DNA from: Escherichia phage AV108
Length of the DNA: 64,000 bases
Direction: 5' to 3' (one strand)
Sequence record: OR352938.1
Within the stretch, counting starts at the first letter, position 1. Every line of letters starts with the position of its first letter. This document shows, in pieces, positions 2,772 to 63,987 of the stretch. Position numbers and translations under genes: made by a program. Below the pieces are notes generated by a model. It searched no databases. It saw only the letters and a program-made list of their open reading frames with translations, and had not been told where the DNA came from.

Positions 2772-3797
2772 CTAACTTTTTGCGCTATTTACTTCGGCTA
2801 AAAGTTCATCAGAAATACGCTTGACCGCCGCAAGTTCTTCCGGTTCTAGGTTTTGTTCTTCCAGATATTCATAGACCATCTGAATAGTGCTTTTAACTTC
2901 AATAACACCTGTTTCCTGTGATGCGCTACTCTCCAGCTTATGGACCACTTTTAGCTTGTGCACAACGGCCTCTAACGCGCTTTCTAACTTAGTTAACCCA
3001 TTATCAGCAACCGTTGCGATAAGACGCACACTAAGCCCCTTAAAGCGTTCTACATCGATCTTATCATCTGACGGGTAAGTGATACGCACATGATAAGTTT
3101 TGTCATTCTGGATAAACTCTTTTTTGTGTGTATCGGTATCGAATACCCAAAACCCACGCGGATCGTTTTCGTCACCCGCCGTTAGTGTGTATGGTGTACC
3201 AATATACGTTACGTTACCGCCATCGCTGATAGTATGAAAATGACCAGAAAACACTTCACGGTATTTCTTGAGAAAGTCCGCGCTATAACCTTCGGATTTT
3301 AGCCCTTTATAGAAATAGTAACCGGACAATTCCCAATGGCCTACACAATATTCGCTGAATGAGTTTTGAATAAACTCTAAAATCTCTGATTTATTGTCAT
3401 CGCAAAACCACGGAAACAGATCAAATGATACACCATCAAAGGTAACTGTTTCCGGCTTATCAATAACTTTAATACAATCATATTGGCTTAACACTTCACG
3501 CGGTGCGTTAGGCTGGATCTTGTTTCGTTTAAACATATCATGGTTCCCGACCGTGATATAACAAGTAATACCAGCCTCTTCCAGTAGCGGGATGACCTTA
3601 GTACGGTTAAATTTCATGGTTTCATGGGTAATTGCTTTTCGGCAATCAAACCAATCCCCTGTTTGAATCCATGTCTTAATATTATGCTCTTTGGAGTATT
3701 CAACCGCCTTCTTGATGGTATCAAGAATATACTCATGCACCCACGGATCATCGCCACCGATACCAGTATGCAGATCACCTAAAAGCAAAATTTTCAT
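2772..3797 (-). CDS. 47: recombination endonuclease subunit gp47 (SbcD/Mre11-like phosphoesterase)
   Basis: 341 aa; MKILLLGDLHTG..., GNHD, GHWEL, GHFHT metallophosphatase motifs; near-colinear with T4 gp47 (339 aa) as recalled. Confidence 0.9.
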   Translation of the reverse strand: MKILLLGDLHTGIGGDDPWVHEYILDTIKKAVEYSKEHNIKTWIQTGDWFDCRKAITHETMKFNRTKVIPLLEEAGITCYITVGNHDMFKRNKIQPNAPREVLSQYDCIKVIDKPETVTFDGVSFDLFPWFCDDNKSEILEFIQNSFSEYCVGHWELSGYYFYKGLKSEGYSADFLKKYREVFSGHFHTISDGGNVTYIGTPYTLTAGDENDPRGFWVFDTDTHKKEFIQNDKTYHVRITYPSDDKIDVERFKGLSVRLIATVADNGLTKLESALEAVVHKLKVVHKLESSASQETGVIEVKSTIQMVYEYLEEQNLEPEELAAVKRISDELLAEVNSAKS

Positions 3798-3844
3798 AGT
3801 CTCTTCCTCTCTTCGTTTTCGATGCTCTCACTATATCACAGAAA

Positions 3845-4410: not shown

Positions 4411-4927
4411 AAAATTGGTCCAGGCTAGGCAATTCCTCGGTCAATACATCTTCAACCTTTGGCGCTTTCGGTTTATTGACCGATTCCTCGTAGTTGTTGA
4501 TTTTATCGTAAATGTCCTGTATGAATGCCTCATCAGCAATCTGGCACATATCAGCGTCGCGTTCGTCATATACATGATGCACAAAATATTTGTATTTTGC
4601 GGCTGTCGCTGTTCTCTCTTTTTTAATGCGCTGTACAAAAGCATTAAAGCACGCTTGCGTGATGTAAGCATGAGGATTTTTATACTTTGTCTCGTCAAAA
4701 TTAATCAAACCCTTGACCGCCGCTTCGATTCCGTCGTCGATCATTTCTTCGCGCCATGTTTGACTATAACCAGAAAAGTTAAAACGACGTGATAGATTTT
4801 TAGAGATTTGCATAATTGCTAGGCCGATTTGATCGCTCATTGGAACTTGCCGACCTTCTGCTGCAATTTGTTGTTTCCAACGGCAAATTTCTTCGTAAAG
4901 CTCTTTATTGTTTACATAATCAGACAC
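4394..4927 (-). CDS. 55: late-transcription sigma factor gp55
   Basis: 177 aa; ...[59 protein letters not shown]... nearly identical in its core to T4 gp55 as recalled. Confidence 0.92.
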
Positions 4928-4967
4928 TTCGCACCCTCGCTATTATTTAGGAAATAACCCGTTCGGG

Positions 4968-6437
4968 CTATTCCCCATTACCATTATACTTTCTTTGCTT
5001 AGTTATCCACACTCTAACCATCTCTACAGATTCGCCGTCAGACGGATCAAGAGTTTTTCCTTTTTTCTTCATGCGGTACTTAAATCCGTTAAATCTTGCA
5101 TTCTCTTGCTCGTTAAAGTCGAACATCTTTTTAAATGATTTTCGCCCTTTACGCTCACCGCATTCTAGCGGAATCATTCGGTCTGTTATTACATTGGCAT
5201 TAGGCAGAAACGTTTTTAGATAATCAACCAACGCCCAATCAGGAACATATAGATTAACATTCTCCTTGCTCTCGTTGTCTCTCAGGTTACAACGCAAACA
5301 TAATTGAAATGCTGGTTCCAGATAATCAGACACATGACGCGCTTTCAAAAACTCGTTTGTCGGGAGATCGCAACTATTAGCAAGACCTTTTAAAATATCA
5401 ATCTCCCATCGTTGAGGGTTAAAGCTGAACATCACAGCAACATTTTTATGATGAATGTAAGAGTTAAGACCATAAGATCCGTAAGGTATCCGCTCACCAA
5501 TACCATTTGTGCACGCTTCACGGTCCCGATTCACGGTATAAATGAAGTCATCACCACATTCATTTTTAACCATATCAACAAGACGTTCAAAGGTATTGTT
5601 TGTTTCTGACTGGTGACGCGACCATCGTTCGGAGTCCGTCATAAGGATGATATTAACTCTATCTGTATTTTTATACTCTTTGAAATATAGTCTGGATTCT
5701 AGCGCACTAGGAACAAAATCGCAATTTGCATAGTATCGTAGATACTTCCCACTATATGTATCAAAGAGATTTGCACATGCTATCGTAACCTTTTTAAAGT
5801 CTCCCCACGTACCGTGTTTGTTATCGTTCAAGAAAACAATTTTCGACCCATTCTTCCGGTGTCCTTCGTTATGTTTTACCATAACGTTGATTTTCTTCTC
5901 TAATAACGCCTCATAAAGCCCTCTAAGAGAAGAATCGATCATATCAGTACCATCCTTTGCACTTTCTATCTTTTCTTTGATAGCGGCCTTCTCAGAGTCT
6001 TTTAGAACTAAGTTCTGTAGGCATTCCGATTCGTCGGCGATTGGTTCGCAATGCTTCGTGATAAGTTCAAGATTAGACTTAAACGGATACTCATTAAATT
6101 CAACCAGTTGAGGAACTTCATCAATGTAAAGAGCATATTCACCAAACATTTTTGAACGTTCCATATTAGATAACGCTGTATGTGTAATGAATATCACATC
6201 AGCACCATCTTTAACTGATTGCATTATAGACGCTTGCACTGTCTTAAGGCTTCTTAGTCTTGTGCTATCAATCAAGACAGCACGACCGCCCATTCTTTTA
6301 AACTTATTGTAAGATTGTTCACTTAAAACACGAGATGGCGAAGCAATAACCGCTTTTTCTTTTGTCTCTAGGACGTGGGAAAGTATAGCATCAGTTTTCC
6401 CCGCCGCTGGCAATGCGATTAATGTTTCAATCTTCAT
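4968..6437 (-). CDS. P-loop NTPase with helicase-like motifs (489 aa), function unknown
   Basis: Walker A LPAAGKTD (aa 8-15), PTRxL-like ASPSRVLSEQ, Walker B/DExx-like ALYIDEVPQ about 90 aa downstream; start overlaps stop of upstream 101-aa ORF. Confidence 0.6.
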   Translation of the reverse strand: MKIETLIALPAAGKTDAILSHVLETKEKAVIASPSRVLSEQSYNKFKRMGGRAVLIDSTRLRSLKTVQASIMQSVKDGADVIFITHTALSNMERSKMFGEYALYIDEVPQLVEFNEYPFKSNLELITKHCEPIADESECLQNLVLKDSEKAAIKEKIESAKDGTDMIDSSLRGLYEALLEKKINVMVKHNEGHRKNGSKIVFLNDNKHGTWGDFKKVTIACANLFDTYSGKYLRYYANCDFVPSALESRLYFKEYKNTDRVNIILMTDSERWSRHQSETNNTFERLVDMVKNECGDDFIYTVNRDREACTNGIGERIPYGSYGLNSYIHHKNVAVMFSFNPQRWEIDILKGLANSCDLPTNEFLKARHVSDYLEPAFQLCLRCNLRDNESKENVNLYVPDWALVDYLKTFLPNANVITDRMIPLECGERKGRKSFKKMFDFNEQENARFNGFKYRMKKKGKTLDPSDGESVEMVRVWITKQRKYNGNGE

Positions 6438-39093: not shown

Positions 39094-39684
39094 TTACTTT
39101 CTAAAAGCAGGGTGCATAGCTTTAATACCTTCCACCCTCTGACGATCCGCCGCCTGAATTGCTGGGCGAGGAACGATCAGTTGACCATCACGTTCAATGC
39201 TCATTGTTTTAAAGGGAAGAATTGCAGTACACACCAGAGATTCATGCATATCATCGGTGTATGTTAACTCAAGTTCCCCCAATTGTGAACACCAACAACC
39301 ATAAAAGTTAAAAGTGCACACAATGTTACGTCGTTCGTTGTCCATCATGTGAACTTGAACGGCTTCCGGCATTGAATCCTTCCACGCTGTGGAGTTACCG
39401 TTATTGTAGTCTACTATAGAAAGCATCCATGTGTAAAGGTTTAGATAGCTTTCCAAATGCTCATCAACGATAAACCGGACTACCAACGGGTCAAACTCCA
39501 CATGACTAGACGGATAATCAGCGACCGCCAAACCATATTGACCAGCAACTTGCTTAGTCGGTGGAATGGTTATAGCCGGAAGTGTAACACCTTGACAGTT
39601 TAAAGTAAAGCCTTTTGTTAGTTGACCATCTGGAATGGCAATCTGCCAGTTGCTAGGGTTAGCATAGTTAAAGAGATTGGACAT
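39094..39684 (-). CDS. 3: tail completion / sheath stabiliser protein gp3-like
   Basis: 196 aa ORF in the position of T4 gene 3 (between gene 1 and gene 2); assignment by synteny and size only. Confidence 0.55.
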   Translation of the reverse strand: MSNLFNYANPSNWQIAIPDGQLTKGFTLNCQGVTLPAITIPPTKQVAGQYGLAVADYPSSHVEFDPLVVRFIVDEHLESYLNLYTWMLSIVDYNNGNSTAWKDSMPEAVQVHMMDNERRNIVCTFNFYGCWCSQLGELELTYTDDMHESLVCTAILPFKTMSIERDGQLIVPRPAIQAADRQRVEGIKAMHPAFRK

Positions 39685-39714
39685 TACGATTCCTTAAATG
39701 AAAATATTTATCAA

Positions 39715-40248
39715 CTAAAAATTTAAACTAGCATAATCTCCAAAATGTTCCTTTGCTGCTTCGTCATAAGCCTTTGCAGCATCAACTTCGTCAAGAAAGA
39801 CGCCCAAATGGACCTTTCTACGATTGATTGATATCTGAGCACACCATTTGTTATTCTGTGTTCTAATCACTCCTTTATACTTACTCTTACAACCATCAAG
39901 TTTTCCGCGATTGAACGCATTTTCCTGAGAAGTGGATTCTCTCAAGTTATCCGGTGCATTATTTTCTCGGTTTCTATCTACATGGTCGATCATTTTAACT
40001 TGCGTACCATGTTCAAGATACCAAACAACCCTATGAACTTTAATGACCAAAGAATAGCCATCACTGCGCCAAAACTTAAAACATAGATAACCTCGACTAT
40101 TTTTATAAACTTTAACCGGGTCTCCTGCCTTATACCATCGACCATTCTTTCCACTATCTTTCAAATGATACAATATACCATTAACGTGTTTATACTTATC
40201 TCTAATTTCTTTTTGTGTAAAATCATCCCACATCTTAAAACCAGACAT
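39715..40248 (-). CDS. HNH homing endonuclease with C-terminal AP2 DNA-binding domain
   Basis: MIDHVDRNRENNAPDNLRESTSQENAFN (HNH) and YKGVIRTQNNKWCAQISINRRKVHLGVFLDEVDAAKAYDEAAKEHFG (AP2-like); inserted between gene 3 and gene 2. Confidence 0.75.
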   Translation of the reverse strand: MSGFKMWDDFTQKEIRDKYKHVNGILYHLKDSGKNGRWYKAGDPVKVYKNSRGYLCFKFWRSDGYSLVIKVHRVVWYLEHGTQVKMIDHVDRNRENNAPDNLRESTSQENAFNRGKLDGCKSKYKGVIRTQNNKWCAQISINRRKVHLGVFLDEVDAAKAYDEAAKEHFGDYASLNF

Positions 40249-40465
40249 ACATTTTCTCCTGATATTATTAATAACAACATCAATCTAACACATCCAGTAT
40301 ATAATGTCAATTGTCGCTTTGCGACGTGCCGTAGGCACTGACTACTTTTTAACCGAAACAAATTTTTATTATTCTAAAGATCTTTCTTCGTTTTGGTTAT
40401 GTTTTAACCAATAACTATATTTTTATACAGTAATAAATAAAACTGGTACTATACGAGGACTTCTT

Positions 40466-40720
40466 ATGACAGAAGACATTTTGTTAAAACTCTATGATCG
40501 TTTGGATAACGAATTAGCAACATTGCGGGGTGAAGTTCTCTATTTGTCTAAATGCAATACAGATCTGCTTAAGCAGATTGCAGAAAGGGATGATCAAATA
40601 AAATCCCTTTCAGGTGCATTACGTGATCGCGACAAGGCATTAGAGATTTTACAGCGTGTTACCAATAAGGAAGAATTAAAAGACTTCTTACATGGTTATG
40701 CTCATGCTATCGATCTATAA
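40466..40720 (+). CDS. hypothetical coiled-coil protein (84 aa), lone plus-strand gene in the early region
   Basis: ORF track; GAGGA RBS; upstream late-promoter-like TAATAAATA; followed by hairpin terminator. Confidence 0.5.
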   Translation: MTEDILLKLYDRLDNELATLRGEVLYLSKCNTDLLKQIAERDDQIKSLSGALRDRDKALEILQRVTNKEELKDFLHGYAHAIDL

Positions 40721-40723
40721 TAA

Positions 40724-40752
40724 AAAAAGCCCGTCATTGACGGGCTTAATCT
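40724..40752. terminator. bidirectional hairpin terminator between convergent genes
   Basis: agcccgtcattgacgggct hairpin flanked by A/T runs on both sides. Confidence 0.55.
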
Positions 40753-41894
40753 TAACTATTGATCATATCAATGACGTTTTGTAGCTCTGATATGGATAGC
40801 GTTTCTGTATATCCATCGGGCATATCTTCTTTACTAACATAGAAACCTTTATACTTTTTCTTTATTGCACATTCCATAGAAAGAGCATCATCACCGTTAT
40901 CGTATTTTTTATAAAATGTCAACTCATGACGAAATATAGATTTTGAAGATTGGTTTTGTATTCTTTTTATTAATCTGTTGTTGGTTATACCAAATTTTAT
41001 AGCAACCGCAACATCTTCTTTGTATAAAGTTTGTACATAAATGTATGCAGGTTTATTCCTCTTAAATCCATGATTGCTACACATAGGGCAACCGCTATTT
41101 TTTGATACGTAGTCTCCTAAGTTTGGCGTAAATTCATGTCCGCTACTACAACGCATTACCAATTTTGTTTTTAGCATTCCTCTATACTCACCGCCAACAA
41201 AATCAACAAATGTATCACCTTTATCAATCGCCTTATCTGTTATTTCCTTTACTACTTGCTCAGTTGACTTCTTGTTTTTACCTGAACATAGTTTACATCT
41301 AGATCCATTAACTAAAAACGAGTGACCGGATGCAGTATATTCATGTCCATTAGGGCATTTAACTAAGATATTTCTTTCATAAAAATCTTTATAATCAGAC
41401 ACATAGCCAATGACTTCGTGGTCTTTTTGGTTATTCCTCATCTCTGTTAGCAACTCTTCGCTATTCCAGCGTTTACCCTTAACGCAGAGACAACCATGAC
41501 CTTGATAAAGATATATAAATTTCTTAGTAAAGTTTTTGTTGCAATCAGGACAATGCATTAGTAATTCTGTCATTTGACCTGTATATCCTTTAGGAATATC
41601 GATCAATGTGTATTTTCCGCATATTGTCTTTAATGCATCATCTATTCTTTCTTTGGTCCAGCGTAAGCGACCAGTGCATTCATGACATTTTACACCCAGT
41701 CTAAGAGTATCTAAACTAAATATAGTTGACGTATGTCCTTTATCACATTTTAACTTAAATCTAGTATCCTTTGCGTTGGTGTATTCTCCGACTAGACCAT
41801 ACCATTCATAACCACATGGGATATGTTCTTTTACCTTCTCTAGATATACACCGAACGGTCTAGGAACTGAATTAGGTTTTCTTTCTTTAGTCAT
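40752..41894 (-). CDS. protein with four zinc-ribbon repeats and C-terminal T5orf172/GIY-YIG-like domain (putative homing endonuclease or mobile-element protein)
   Basis: 380 aa; repeats KCDKGH..VKCHECTG, HCPDCNKNF..GCLCVKG, KCPNGHEY..RCKLCSG, RCSSGHEF..GCPMCSN; C-terminus KPAYIYVQT...AIKFGITNNRL...FRHE resembles the T5orf172 domain. Confidence 0.55.
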   Translation of the reverse strand: MTKERKPNSVPRPFGVYLEKVKEHIPCGYEWYGLVGEYTNAKDTRFKLKCDKGHTSTIFSLDTLRLGVKCHECTGRLRWTKERIDDALKTICGKYTLIDIPKGYTGQMTELLMHCPDCNKNFTKKFIYLYQGHGCLCVKGKRWNSEELLTEMRNNQKDHEVIGYVSDYKDFYERNILVKCPNGHEYTASGHSFLVNGSRCKLCSGKNKKSTEQVVKEITDKAIDKGDTFVDFVGGEYRGMLKTKLVMRCSSGHEFTPNLGDYVSKNSGCPMCSNHGFKRNKPAYIYVQTLYKEDVAVAIKFGITNNRLIKRIQNQSSKSIFRHELTFYKKYDNGDDALSMECAIKKKYKGFYVSKEDMPDGYTETLSISELQNVIDMINS

Positions 41895-41904
41895 ATTTTT
41901 ATAT

Positions 41905-41940
41905 CCTGTAAATTAAAGCGCCGTCACCAGCGGCGCTATT
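41905..41940 (-). terminator. hairpin downstream of gene 2
   Basis: agcgccg-tcaccag-cggcgct inverted repeat. Confidence 0.4.
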
Positions 41941-41950
41941 TTTATAATCA

Positions 41951-42772
41951 TTAAAACAATTTCCACACCTTACGAGCATCATATTTCTTGTCTTTGCTCA
42001 TAAACTGGTAGGTCGGAAGATACACAACCGTGCCCCAATCTTTTGGTGCGATCTCAATCAGTTTTGTTTGGATGTGTCCAGGCAAATATGCTTTGATCAT
42101 GTGGTCTGCGCCTCTCATACCTTTAACATCACTCCATTTAATTTTTAAACGAGTTTTATTACTAAGAGTAGGTGTACTCGCGTATTGTCGCAACAACGCT
42201 TCTAAGAACTGCTGGCGAGCTTTAGGTGGCGCATAGTGCAAGTTCAAACCTAGCATAATCTCGTTTCCCGCTTTAGATGTACCAAATCCTAGACAGATAA
42301 TCAAGGGGTATCGGTCAAAGAATGGCAAAGAATCCCGATATTTTGGGTTATACGCATAAGTATAGATCCGTCCCACTTGTGGTTTTACTACCTGATGACC
42401 TTTTACACCATCCTTGATGGTCTTCATAAACCACTCCTGTGATTTTTCTTTAGGACGACTCTTTGATACAGCACGCATAGACGCACGAAAATCATTAATC
42501 ATCATCATTGCGCGTTGCTGCTTATTGAGACCCTTTGCACTTTTCCCTTTTAGTTTTTCAACTTCTATTGCTGTTTTAATTTCGCTGGCATAACGAGACA
42601 TACTTTTAGTGAAAGTCGCATAAGCAATACCCTTAGAATCTGCAAATGCTTTAGCTGTCATGCCTTTGGCTTTTGCTTTCGCAAATTCTACACCCAATTC
42701 GACCCACTGTTTAGACTTTCGTTTTTGGGGAGACGGCTTTTCGTCTTCGGTGATTATTTCAAATACGCTCAT
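41951..42772 (-). CDS. 2: DNA end protector protein gp2-like
   Basis: 273 aa (T4 gp2 is 274 aa), basic protein, located between gene 3 and gene 4. Confidence 0.6.
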   Translation of the reverse strand: MSVFEIITEDEKPSPQKRKSKQWVELGVEFAKAKAKGMTAKAFADSKGIAYATFTKSMSRYASEIKTAIEVEKLKGKSAKGLNKQQRAMMMINDFRASMRAVSKSRPKEKSQEWFMKTIKDGVKGHQVVKPQVGRIYTYAYNPKYRDSLPFFDRYPLIICLGFGTSKAGNEIMLGLNLHYAPPKARQQFLEALLRQYASTPTLSNKTRLKIKWSDVKGMRGADHMIKAYLPGHIQTKLIEIAPKDWGTVVYLPTYQFMSKDKKYDARKVWKLF

Positions 42773-62357: not shown

Positions 62358-62397
62358 TAAATACTTGTATTGATATAATATAAGGATCTAATGACTT

Positions 62398-63153
62398 ATG
62401 AAAAACTATTATCTATACGAAATAAAGAACAATATAAATGGTAAGATATATGTTGGCATTCGTGGGTATGATGGTGACATAAGTCAAGATCCTTATATGG
62501 GTAGTGGATTGACTCTTAAGAGGTCTATTAAAAAGAACGGGATAGAAAACTTCACAAAAACAATTCTCAAAACGTTTGACTCATGGAAAGAGGCAAGGAA
62601 AGCAGAAAGAGAAATAGTTACAGAGGAATTTGTAAAAAGAGAAGATACCTATAATGTTTCGGTTGGTGGACAAGGTGGAAATACTCACGCTGGGATGAGC
62701 GAAGAACGAAGAAAACTTGCAAGCGAAAGACACGCAGAAGCAAACCGAAATAGAGTATGGAAGCAAGAATCTAGAGATAAGGTTAGCGCAAGATTCAAAG
62801 GTCATAAGCTATCACAGAAGCAGATAGACGCGCTAAAGAAGGCAAACACAGGAAGAAAGTTCACAGAAGAACACAAGTTCAAAATAGGTAAAACGTGGCG
62901 AGGAAAGAAACGACCAGATATAGGAGAGAAGGTTGCGGCAAAATTAACAGGAAGAAAACTACCCCCAGAACATGTGGCAGCAATAACGCAAAATACACCG
63001 AGAGGAAAACAACACTTTAGGGCAAAAAGATTCTTCATCGACGATATGGAATTTTATATTTTGAGTGACGCAGCTAAAATGTTTGGTATAAGTTATAAAA
63101 CGGTTAAAGCTAGACTTCTCTCAGATAAGTTTCCTACATGGAGATATGAATAA
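62398..63153 (+). CDS. GIY-YIG homing endonuclease (Seg-like) with NUMOD3-type repeats
   Basis: N-terminal YLYEIKNNINGKIYVGIRGY (GIY-YIG); repeated ...K.S.E...KI... helix motifs; inserted between gene 14 and gene 15. Confidence 0.75.
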   Translation: MKNYYLYEIKNNINGKIYVGIRGYDGDISQDPYMGSGLTLKRSIKKNGIENFTKTILKTFDSWKEARKAEREIVTEEFVKREDTYNVSVGGQGGNTHAGMSEERRKLASERHAEANRNRVWKQESRDKVSARFKGHKLSQKQIDALKKANTGRKFTEEHKFKIGKTWRGKKRPDIGEKVAAKLTGRKLPPEHVAAITQNTPRGKQHFRAKRFFIDDMEFYILSDAAKMFGISYKTVKARLLSDKFPTWRYE

Positions 63154-63987
63154 ATGTTTTCACATTTTTACAATTCGTCAATTAGACGGTATATTGTATT
63201 GCTGGGTAATTTATTCTCCGGCGTACAAATTAAAAGGGTGCGTAGCGACGGTGAGAGTTTTATTAAAGTTCCTATCACCTACGCAAAGAAAGAAAAATTC
63301 ATGATGAGTCTGGACAAATATAACAATATCTCAAGTGAGGAAGACGTAGCAAAGGTAGAAACTATTTTACCGCGTATGTGTCTTTCTTTGATTGATATGA
63401 CATACGCCCAGAACTTTAAAACAAATATTGCAAATAAGACAGTACCAAAATATACGGCTGATGGAATCAGGAGCGTAACACAATATAATCCTGTACCATA
63501 TAAGTTTACTTTCGAGTTAGGGATTTATACGCGTAACGAAGATGATATGTTTCAGATAATTGAACAGATTCTTCCTTACTTCCAGCCTCATTTTAACTGT
63601 AAGATTAAAGAACTACACGGTAATGATGTATGGATTGATCGAGATATTCAGGTCACTATTAGTTCTATTACTCCAGATGAACAGGTAGGCGAAGATAAGT
63701 TTTCTCGTCGTCGTCTTGAGTGGACCATTATGTTCGAATTTATCGGCTTTATATATCCTCCAGCTACCGACGTTAAGGGGGAAATTAGAACGATTTATCT
63801 TGATTTTCATGCTAATTCTCGTGAATTAAATCCTAGCGGTAATTTTGAATCAGTGGATCACGAGGTCGTTAAACGTGACGTCGAGCAAGAAGATTGGGAC
63901 GGAACAATCAAAGAATCATATTCTAGTGATATTCCAATACCAGTTGCACCAACTCCACCGGGTCCACGTATTGTAAGAGAATTTTAA
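63154..63987 (+). CDS. 15: tail sheath stabiliser / tail terminator gp15
   Basis: 277 aa (T4 gp15 is 272 aa); synteny. Confidence 0.7.
   Translation: MFSHFYNSSIRRYIVLLGNLFSGVQIKRVRSDGESFIKVPITYAKKEKFMMSLDKYNNISSEEDVAKVETILPRMCLSLIDMTYAQNFKTNIANKTVPKYTADGIRSVTQYNPVPYKFTFELGIYTRNEDDMFQIIEQILPYFQPHFNCKIKELHGNDVWIDRDIQVTISSITPDEQVGEDKFSRRRLEWTIMFEFIGFIYPPATDVKGEIRTIYLDFHANSRELNPSGNFESVDHEVVKRDVEQEDWDGTIKESYSSDIPIPVAPTPPGPRIVREF

Follow-up and report, generated by a model that had tools for sequence, protein, structure and literature searches.

The genome of Escherichia phage AV108 (sequence record OR352938.1), of which a stretch of 64,000 nucleotides (the window) was analysed, has about 2.2 kb of DNA between gene 3 and gene 2, and the locus raises the question whether this DNA was acquired as a single mobile element or in separate events. 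The ORF listing confirms the three open reading frames (ORFs) that an earlier note, made from the sequence alone, had placed in the interval: one of 177 amino acids (aa), one of 84 aa on the opposite strand (ORF84), and one of 380 aa. The note had regarded all three as parts of one composite insertion. The interval consists instead of two independent insertions that flank resident DNA: insertion A, with the 177-aa gene of an HNH nuclease joined to an AP2 domain, and insertion B, with the 380-aa gene of a zinc-finger/T5orf172 protein (Table 1). The reading preferred here, with a probability of about 0.78, is that A and B are free-standing homing endonuclease genes (HEGs), unrelated to each other and acquired independently, on either side of resident ORF84. 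Both belong to kinds already described, and both are already present in GenBank phages, the 380-aa gene in JSE (NC_012740/EU863408) and the 177-aa gene in phiS (PP449093).

The window derives from a Krischvirus (an RB49-like, T4-type coliphage) and is ~99% identical to JSE. The annotated regions of five relatives (RB49, phiS, JSE, PTE-Eco09 and Phi1) were compared with it, and the junctions of both insertions were set by BLAST and junction alignments. RB49 has the order gene 3, 190 nt, ORF84, gene 2, with zero nuclease genes; the sole addition in phiS is the 177-aa HNH-AP2 gene, and the sole addition in JSE, G37-3 and PTE-Eco09 is the 380-aa gene, while Phi1 has a different gene, for a 343-aa 'endonuclease', in the slot of the latter. 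Gene 3 is collinear with its counterparts in RB49, JSE, Phi1 and phiS. Insertion A, whose junction is precise (minus strand, CAATT^GTT(A/G)ATAAATA), is absent from RB49, JSE, Phi1 and PTE-Eco09 and is found at full length in one other record, that of phiS (98.8% identical); diverged copies are located at several other Krischvirus sites. Insertion B, absent from RB49 and phiS, is at least 99.7% identical in JSE, G37-3 and PTE-Eco09 (three phages in four records) and in 8 metagenome contigs, and site A is empty in each contig that reaches it. An overlapping upstream gene in one of the metagenome contigs (L010) is a spurious gene call, the junction there being the same as in the window. Altogether, the 380-aa gene occupies its slot in only 4 of ~58 Krischvirus records, and it is thus not a conserved structural or assembly protein gene, the identity that the earlier note had named as contrary to its proposal.

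The insertions are considered independent because relatives with A alone, with B alone and with neither all exist, and ORF84 is resident in them. A composite mobile element, comprising the HNH-AP2 gene, ORF84 and the zinc-finger/T5orf172 gene and inserted as a unit, would account for the presence of three ORFs between two conserved genes and for a G+C content lower in the interval (0.30-0.37) than in its flanks (about 0.40-0.44), but it is scarcely tenable: RB49 and most other Krischviruses lack both cassettes and always have ORF84, phiS has only A and JSE only B, the segment around ORF84 is 99.1% identical to RB49, and A and B were not found together in any other genome record or metagenome contig searched. 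A transposon or insertion sequence is excluded, the insertions having neither terminal repeats nor a transposase domain.

ORF84 is a resident, genus-specific gene that forms part of neither insertion. It was detected by tblastn in 58 phage records, all of them Krischvirus, with at least 95% aa identity (at least 99% in 52 of the 58), and occupies the same place in RB49, Phi1, JSE, phiS and PTE-Eco09; the segment identified above as 99.1% identical to RB49 (40308-40754, ORF84 with its flanks) compares with about 96-97% for neighbouring DNA. Its only match is to PHROG 17832 (unknown function), and a search of NCBIfam gave no match for ORF84 or for the 177-aa and 380-aa proteins. This ORFan, which lies on the opposite strand, is under unusual constraint, and a motif resembling a late promoter (ATAAATA) is found ~30 nt upstream of it. 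The hairpin that the earlier note had assigned to ORF84 as its own terminator is also resident, and in RB49 directly follows the stop codon of gene 2. It folds on both strands (-16.8 kcal/mol on the minus strand, -15.1 kcal/mol on the plus strand), but it should serve the gene 2 strand because its U-run is confined to the minus strand; it is predicted to terminate gene 2 in RB49 and, in the window, the 380-aa gene, and is not private to ORF84.

Table 1. Features of the gene 3–gene 2 interval and other nuclease gene sites in the window
Feature	Position	Strand	Remarks
Gene 3 (tail completion / sheath stabilizer)	39094..39684	-	Pfam Phage_T4_gp19, PHROG 45; resident flank of insertion A
177-aa ORF	39715-40248	-	ORF listing
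Insertion A, 592 bp	39716..40307	-	putative free-standing HNH-AP2 homing endonuclease cassette: 177-aa ORF, ribosome-binding site, promoter-like upstream DNA
Sigma-70-like promoter match	40282..40310	-	candidate, upstream of HNH-AP2 gene; TTGACA-17-TAGATT + extended TG; consensus scan 10/12
Twin stem-loop, resident	40313..40340	-	directly upstream of insertion A junction; in all relatives; RNA fold -15.6 kcal/mol, z -3.4
ORF84 (84 aa)	40466-40720	+	ORF listing
Intrinsic terminator, resident	40727..40747	-	terminator scan lists minus strand only; shared by convergent genes
380-aa ORF	40752-41894	-	ORF listing
Insertion B, 1196 bp	40755..41950	-	380-aa ORF + 56-nt upstream spacer; PHROG 681 'endonuclease' 2e-81
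Predicted T5orf172 (GIY-YIG superfamily) nuclease domain	40755..41069	-	C-terminal residues 276-380 (105 residues)
Four tandem CapR/DUF4379-type zinc-finger repeats	41070..41861	-	residues 12-77, 78-141, 142-207, 208-275
G+C-rich hairpin	41917..41937	-	brought with cassette B; between gene 2 stop codon and ribosome-binding site of 380-aa gene
Gene 2 (DNA end protector)	41951-42772	-	PHROG 429/32288; PF26869 in metagenome copies; resident, 3' part replaced
Diverged 3' gene 2 tract, apparently imported	41951..42440	-	codons ~114-273, linked to cassette B
Empty site	~3794-3798		RB49 has HNH-AP2 gene RB49p040 (565 bp) here, between gene 47 and a-gt.4
Insertion relative to RB49, +598 bp	29914-30511		ORF 29910-30503 (-), 197-aa NUMOD4 + HNH_3
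Insertion relative to RB49, +803 bp	62366-63168		ORF 62398-63153 (+), 251-aa seg-like GIY-YIG, between genes 14 and 15

An indication of homing comes from the DNA beside insertion B. The stop codon of the 380-aa gene is located exactly at the position of the gene 2 stop codon of RB49, directly before the resident terminator, and on its other side the insertion adjoins a part of gene 2 that has been replaced. Over 480 nt (41961-42440), this gene is 63-82% identical to those of RB49, Phi1 and phiS (in 60-nt bins), and from 42441 the identity is 95-100%; among the B-carrying genomes (JSE, PTE-Eco09), the diverged tract is 98-100% identical. Accordingly divided, the gene 2 product (gp2) is 99% identical to that of RB49 over residues 1-113 and 78% over residues 114-273, and 72 of the 108 codons that differ leave the residue unchanged, so that the tract has the appearance of a genuinely diverged functional allele brought by recombination, not of local decay. 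Beyond the B carriers, phage records reach at most ~71% identity to it, and the donor lineage is therefore unsampled and the allele strictly linked to the nuclease gene. On the opposite side of B, ORF84 is 96-100% identical to RB49, so the divergence is one-sided. Such an abrupt jump in identity beside B is as expected for an HEG imported with its flank. Intronless homing by the T4 seg genes is likewise known to leave an essential gene with a tract replaced on one side only and the nuclease gene at the border of that tract (PMC2993671). The different gene in Phi1 has a diverged gene 2 tract of its own (120 nt, 80-85% identical). The full 273-codon frame of gene 2 is open in the window; in the JSE record the gene differs in length by 1 nt close to its 5' end, which breaks the frame, and is annotated 75 nt shorter.

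The predicted 380-aa protein has the architecture that the earlier note described, four zinc-ribbon repeats followed by a C-terminal T5orf172 domain, the Pfam match of the latter being borderline. The repeats (~65 aa) each supply four zinc ligands (C50/H54/C70/C73; C115/C118/C135/C137; C180/H184/C200/C203; C249/H253/C269/C272), in three of them as C-x3-H...C-x2-C and in one as CxxC...CxC, and C180, C200, C203, C249, C269 and C272 are kept in homologues. Pfam matches are to CapR (49.1 bits, cut-off 24.2) and DUF4379 (34.2 bits, cut-off 24.5). The CapR zinc finger binds DNA via four cysteines and is related to T5orf172 genes of phage ICP1 (Netter 2021, PMC8096241), and the combination of repeated CapR/DUF723/DUF4379 fingers with T5orf172 has been described (Barth, Dunham & Seed 2023, PMC10448857); the repeats are presumed to be a DNA-recognition array. 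A profile search of solved structures with the 380-aa protein returned only the DUF4379 zinc-ribbon proteins of kinetoplastid mitoribosomes and no nuclease. The resemblance (mS66, E 5e-6; mt-SAF33) lies in residues ~150-275, and it appears that a small zinc-ribbon module has been re-used in an unrelated setting.

The C-terminal domain scores 17.2 bits against the T5orf172 model (PF10544) within the full protein and 20.0 bits as isolated residues 278-380, the cut-off being 20; with the same model, the reference member gp130/tcgB of ICP1 scores 21.2 bits, and only 6 of 46 homologues reach an E of 0.01. No match to Pfam PF01541 (GIY-YIG) or NUMOD was obtained with the 380-aa protein. Residues Y286, G302, R311, E341, K345 and Y362 are invariant in the 46 homologues, with almost no variation in the motifs KFGITN and DGYTET. 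The full-length AlphaFold (AF2) model has a predicted local distance difference test score (pLDDT) of 84 (~80-89 per repeat) and a predicted template modelling score (pTM) of 0.37, with no fixed arrangement of the domains, and the model of the isolated C-terminal domain has a pLDDT of 96 and a beta-beta-alpha-beta-alpha topology. In the match list of the isolated domain, PD-T4-3, UPF0213, I-TevI, R.Eco29kI, UvrC-N and T4 EndoII appear lower down. The domain is thus modelled as a GIY-YIG-like fold with the conserved Tyr, Arg and catalytic Glu (Y286/R311/E341); one T5orf172 protein has been shown to be a nuclease whose activity requires the conserved Glu (PMC10448857).

Homologues of the 380-aa protein were detected by tblastn in 559 phage records, among them those of phi92, RB16 and phages of Aeromonas and Vibrio, with E values of 1e-11 for gp130/tcgB of ICP1 and 4e-23 for T5.141. 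Most metagenomic homologues possess a near-identical C-terminal nuclease domain (...SKFDHEIFYELTLQDGQKILELENKIKEAMKGKTSYISKEDMPDGYTETVAPSEL...) and zinc-finger arrays that vary in sequence and length, which suggests domain shuffling like that of the T5orf172 genes of Vibrio phages.

The function of the 380-aa protein, which the earlier note called unclear, is less so than stated, since its architecture matches, and its sequence fits, the CapR-type zinc-finger/T5orf172 putative homing endonucleases of ICP1 (PMC8096241, PMC10448857). Like the products of ICP1 (gp130/tcgB, gp53, gp121, gp165, gp174) and of T5-like phages, it has CapR/DUF4379 fingers at the N-terminus and T5orf172 at the C-terminus, and like those putative HEGs, its gene varies in presence among near-identical phages and adjoins an essential gene at an exchange boundary; an association of T5orf172 genes with essential genes and allele-exchange boundaries has been described (PMC8096241, PMC10448857). 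Unlike them, it is carried by a T4-type coliphage of a group (Krischvirus) that these papers do not name, T4 itself being without T5orf172 genes (PMC8096241, PMC10448857), and differs from the ICP1 proteins in that three of its four fingers are C-x3-H...C-x2-C instead of CxxC...CxC, with ~21% identity. A closer parallel is the Phi1 ORF130.1 / ECD7-type gene, which fills slot B in 11 records. It is inserted at the same point, directly after the stop codon of gene 2, and encodes the same architecture, with C-terminal domains that align, including DGYTET; but the protein is only 28% identical and has three clear fingers instead of four, and the start codon of its gene overlaps the end of gene 2, without spacer or hairpin.

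Domestication of the 380-aa protein to the benefit of the phage, either as a nuclease against competing phages or satellites, like Odn of ICP1, or as a regulator, like CapR of PLE, has precedent in that CapR and Odn show co-option of the two halves of the architecture (PMC8096241, PMC10448857), and the protein is intact and at least 99.7% conserved among its carriers. Its sporadic occurrence (in 4 of ~58 records), its replaceability by a 28%-identical paralogue and its tie to an imported flank make this quite improbable; conservation of the catalytic residues speaks against a purely regulatory role, and marker exclusion by an HEG would itself resemble competition.

The hairpin that came with cassette B is a terminator-like site in DNA absent from RB49, and could possibly attenuate read-through from gene 2. 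The region 41885-41960 on the minus strand folds with -14.4 kcal/mol and a z of only -1.6; sequestration of the ribosome-binding site by this hairpin is not supported, as the Shine-Dalgarno (SD) sequence is outside the stem and the fold has this low z. Its layout is similar to that of the resident terminator (stop codon, (T)GATTA, G+C stem, loop ending TGA), with ~13 of 23 positions common in an unaided position-by-position comparison, and judging from this it may be the donor lineage's version of that terminator.

Insertion A encodes, as predicted by the earlier note, an HNH-AP2 protein. The 177-aa product exceeds the Pfam cut-off for HNH_3 (49.7 bits versus 24.8), and phmmer aligns its residues 39-134 with I-HmuI, an HNH homing endonuclease (1u3e, E 4.5e-4). 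The Pfam AP2 match is below threshold (20.1 bits, cut-off 33.3), and the AP2 assignment comes from phmmer matches of residues 120-177 to solved plant AP2/ERF domains (TEM1, 3e-7; WRI1, 7e-7; ERF096, 9e-4); by these similarities the protein is an HNH nuclease fused to a C-terminal AP2 domain. Its identity to RB49p040, the product of an HNH-AP2 gene located at another site and missing from the window, is 51%. The TAG stop codon of the 177-aa ORF takes its final base from resident DNA, and the -35 hexamer of the candidate promoter straddles the other junction, TT being resident and GACA from the cassette. An exact T4-type late promoter (TATAAATA) was not found before either nuclease gene on reading the sequence. 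On the gene 3 side of A, identity to RB49 falls to 88-95% over 39460-39715 (~250 nt), and the changes common only to both A-carrying genomes (39679, 39687 (an indel), 39695 and 39712) lie within 37 bp of the junction. The homing signature at A is thus weaker than that at B.

Similar HNH-AP2 HEGs of RB49-type phages have been tabulated (Petrov 2010 Table 5, PMC2993671). Those of RB49/RB16/RB43-type phages and the IPA-HNH class of ICP1 (PMC10448857) likewise have HNH_3 at the N-terminus and AP2 at the C-terminus in ~180 aa, and are free-standing and sporadic. The site differs from that of RB49p040, cassette A being upstream of gene 3 (Table 1).

Movement of the cassettes by recombination between promoter/stem-loop (PeSL) repeats or by illegitimate recombination, with the nuclease genes as passive cargo, has to be considered in this setting, given that PeSL-mediated indels set RB49 apart from Phi1 (PMC2839356), that the upstream end of A is PeSL-like (resident twin stem-loop, sigma-70-like promoter, SD, ATG), and that a stem-loop follows a stop codon at either end of B. 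Nevertheless, PeSL cassettes (Arbiol 2010) differ in having homologous promoter/stem-loop motifs on both sides, whereas only the upstream end of A is of this kind, and no direct or inverted repeats beyond chance length flank either cassette. Passive movement would also have to explain why slot B has been re-used by different lineages of one nuclease type, why all large indels of the window relative to RB49 are nuclease genes, and why the diverged tract is one-sided and strictly linked to the nuclease gene. It is an unlikely explanation, if somewhat less so than domestication.

If A and B are homing endonuclease genes, as preferred here, then during mixed infection the enzyme would cut the empty allele of a relative near the insertion point, the likely targets being, for A, the start of gene 3 and the region upstream of it and, for B, the 3' part of gene 2; the four CapR-type zinc fingers of B would recognise a long DNA target. 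Recombinational repair by the phage would fill the break with a copy of the nuclease gene together with neighbouring donor DNA, and the carrier's own flank, differing in sequence, would escape cutting. DNA cleavage, target position and current activity are what we infer for both enzymes. This scheme resembles intronless homing with co-conversion by the T4 seg genes (SegF, SegG; cited in PMC2993671, PMC2988022), which are also free-standing between essential genes, with an adjoining flank replaced together with the gene and a GIY-YIG fold in the product. B differs from Seg proteins in using a zinc-finger array instead of an I-TevI/NUMOD-type module, in its reversed domain order, and in that its nuclease is of the T5orf172 branch, with KFG replacing YIG. 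Several points weigh against this interpretation. The tract in gene 2 is evidence of recombination with a diverged donor, not of what made the break; for the flank effect at A, the evidence consists of four changes in two genomes; and the authors of PMC10448857 regard homing by T5orf172 genes as unverified, later experimental proof not having been found in the literature.

Two further nuclease genes are found in the window (Table 1), making up the four endonuclease-like genes that had been counted in it, and all four are indels relative to RB49. No paralogues of the 177-aa, ORF84 and 380-aa proteins were found by tblastn against the window, and the other two are therefore of unrelated families. 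The 197-aa NUMOD4 + HNH_3 protein, unrelated to the HNH-AP2 gene product, has weak matches to the I-TevI DNA-binding domain and NUMOD1, and the 251-aa seg-like protein matches TIGR01453 with 40 bits, below the cut-off. A one-sided diverged flank recurs near gene 4 (head-completion protein by Pfam/PHROG) in PTE-Eco09 and phiS: PTE-Eco09 has an extra 'endonuclease' gene between genes 4 and 53 (4766-5461 of its compared region), next to which gene 4 shares only 53-90% identity with the window at its 5' end, and gene 4 of phiS is diverged (72-92%), with no nuclease gene annotated beside it in the stretch examined.

It is conceivable, at rather low odds, that cassette B is the vehicle of an alternative C-terminal domain of gp2 (78% aa identity, from an unsampled lineage) and that the swap itself may matter. 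If so, exchange of the gp2 allele may alter resistance to RecBCD-type nucleases or host defences, and slot B would be a contested site, with three or more T5orf172 lineages displacing each other and each bringing a gene 2 allele of its own.

The annotation of this locus is corrected to two independent selfish genes and a resident ORFan, and gene 2 to a mosaic of which the 3' 480 nt travelled with the nuclease gene. T5orf172-type homing has been inferred from genomics only (PMC10448857), and the culturable E. coli phages RB49, with an empty site, JSE, with a filled site, and Phi1, with a rival occupant, which have sequence markers in gene 2, constitute a ready system in which homing by T5orf172 genes could be tested directly for the first time, and the cleavage site mapped, by a simple cross.

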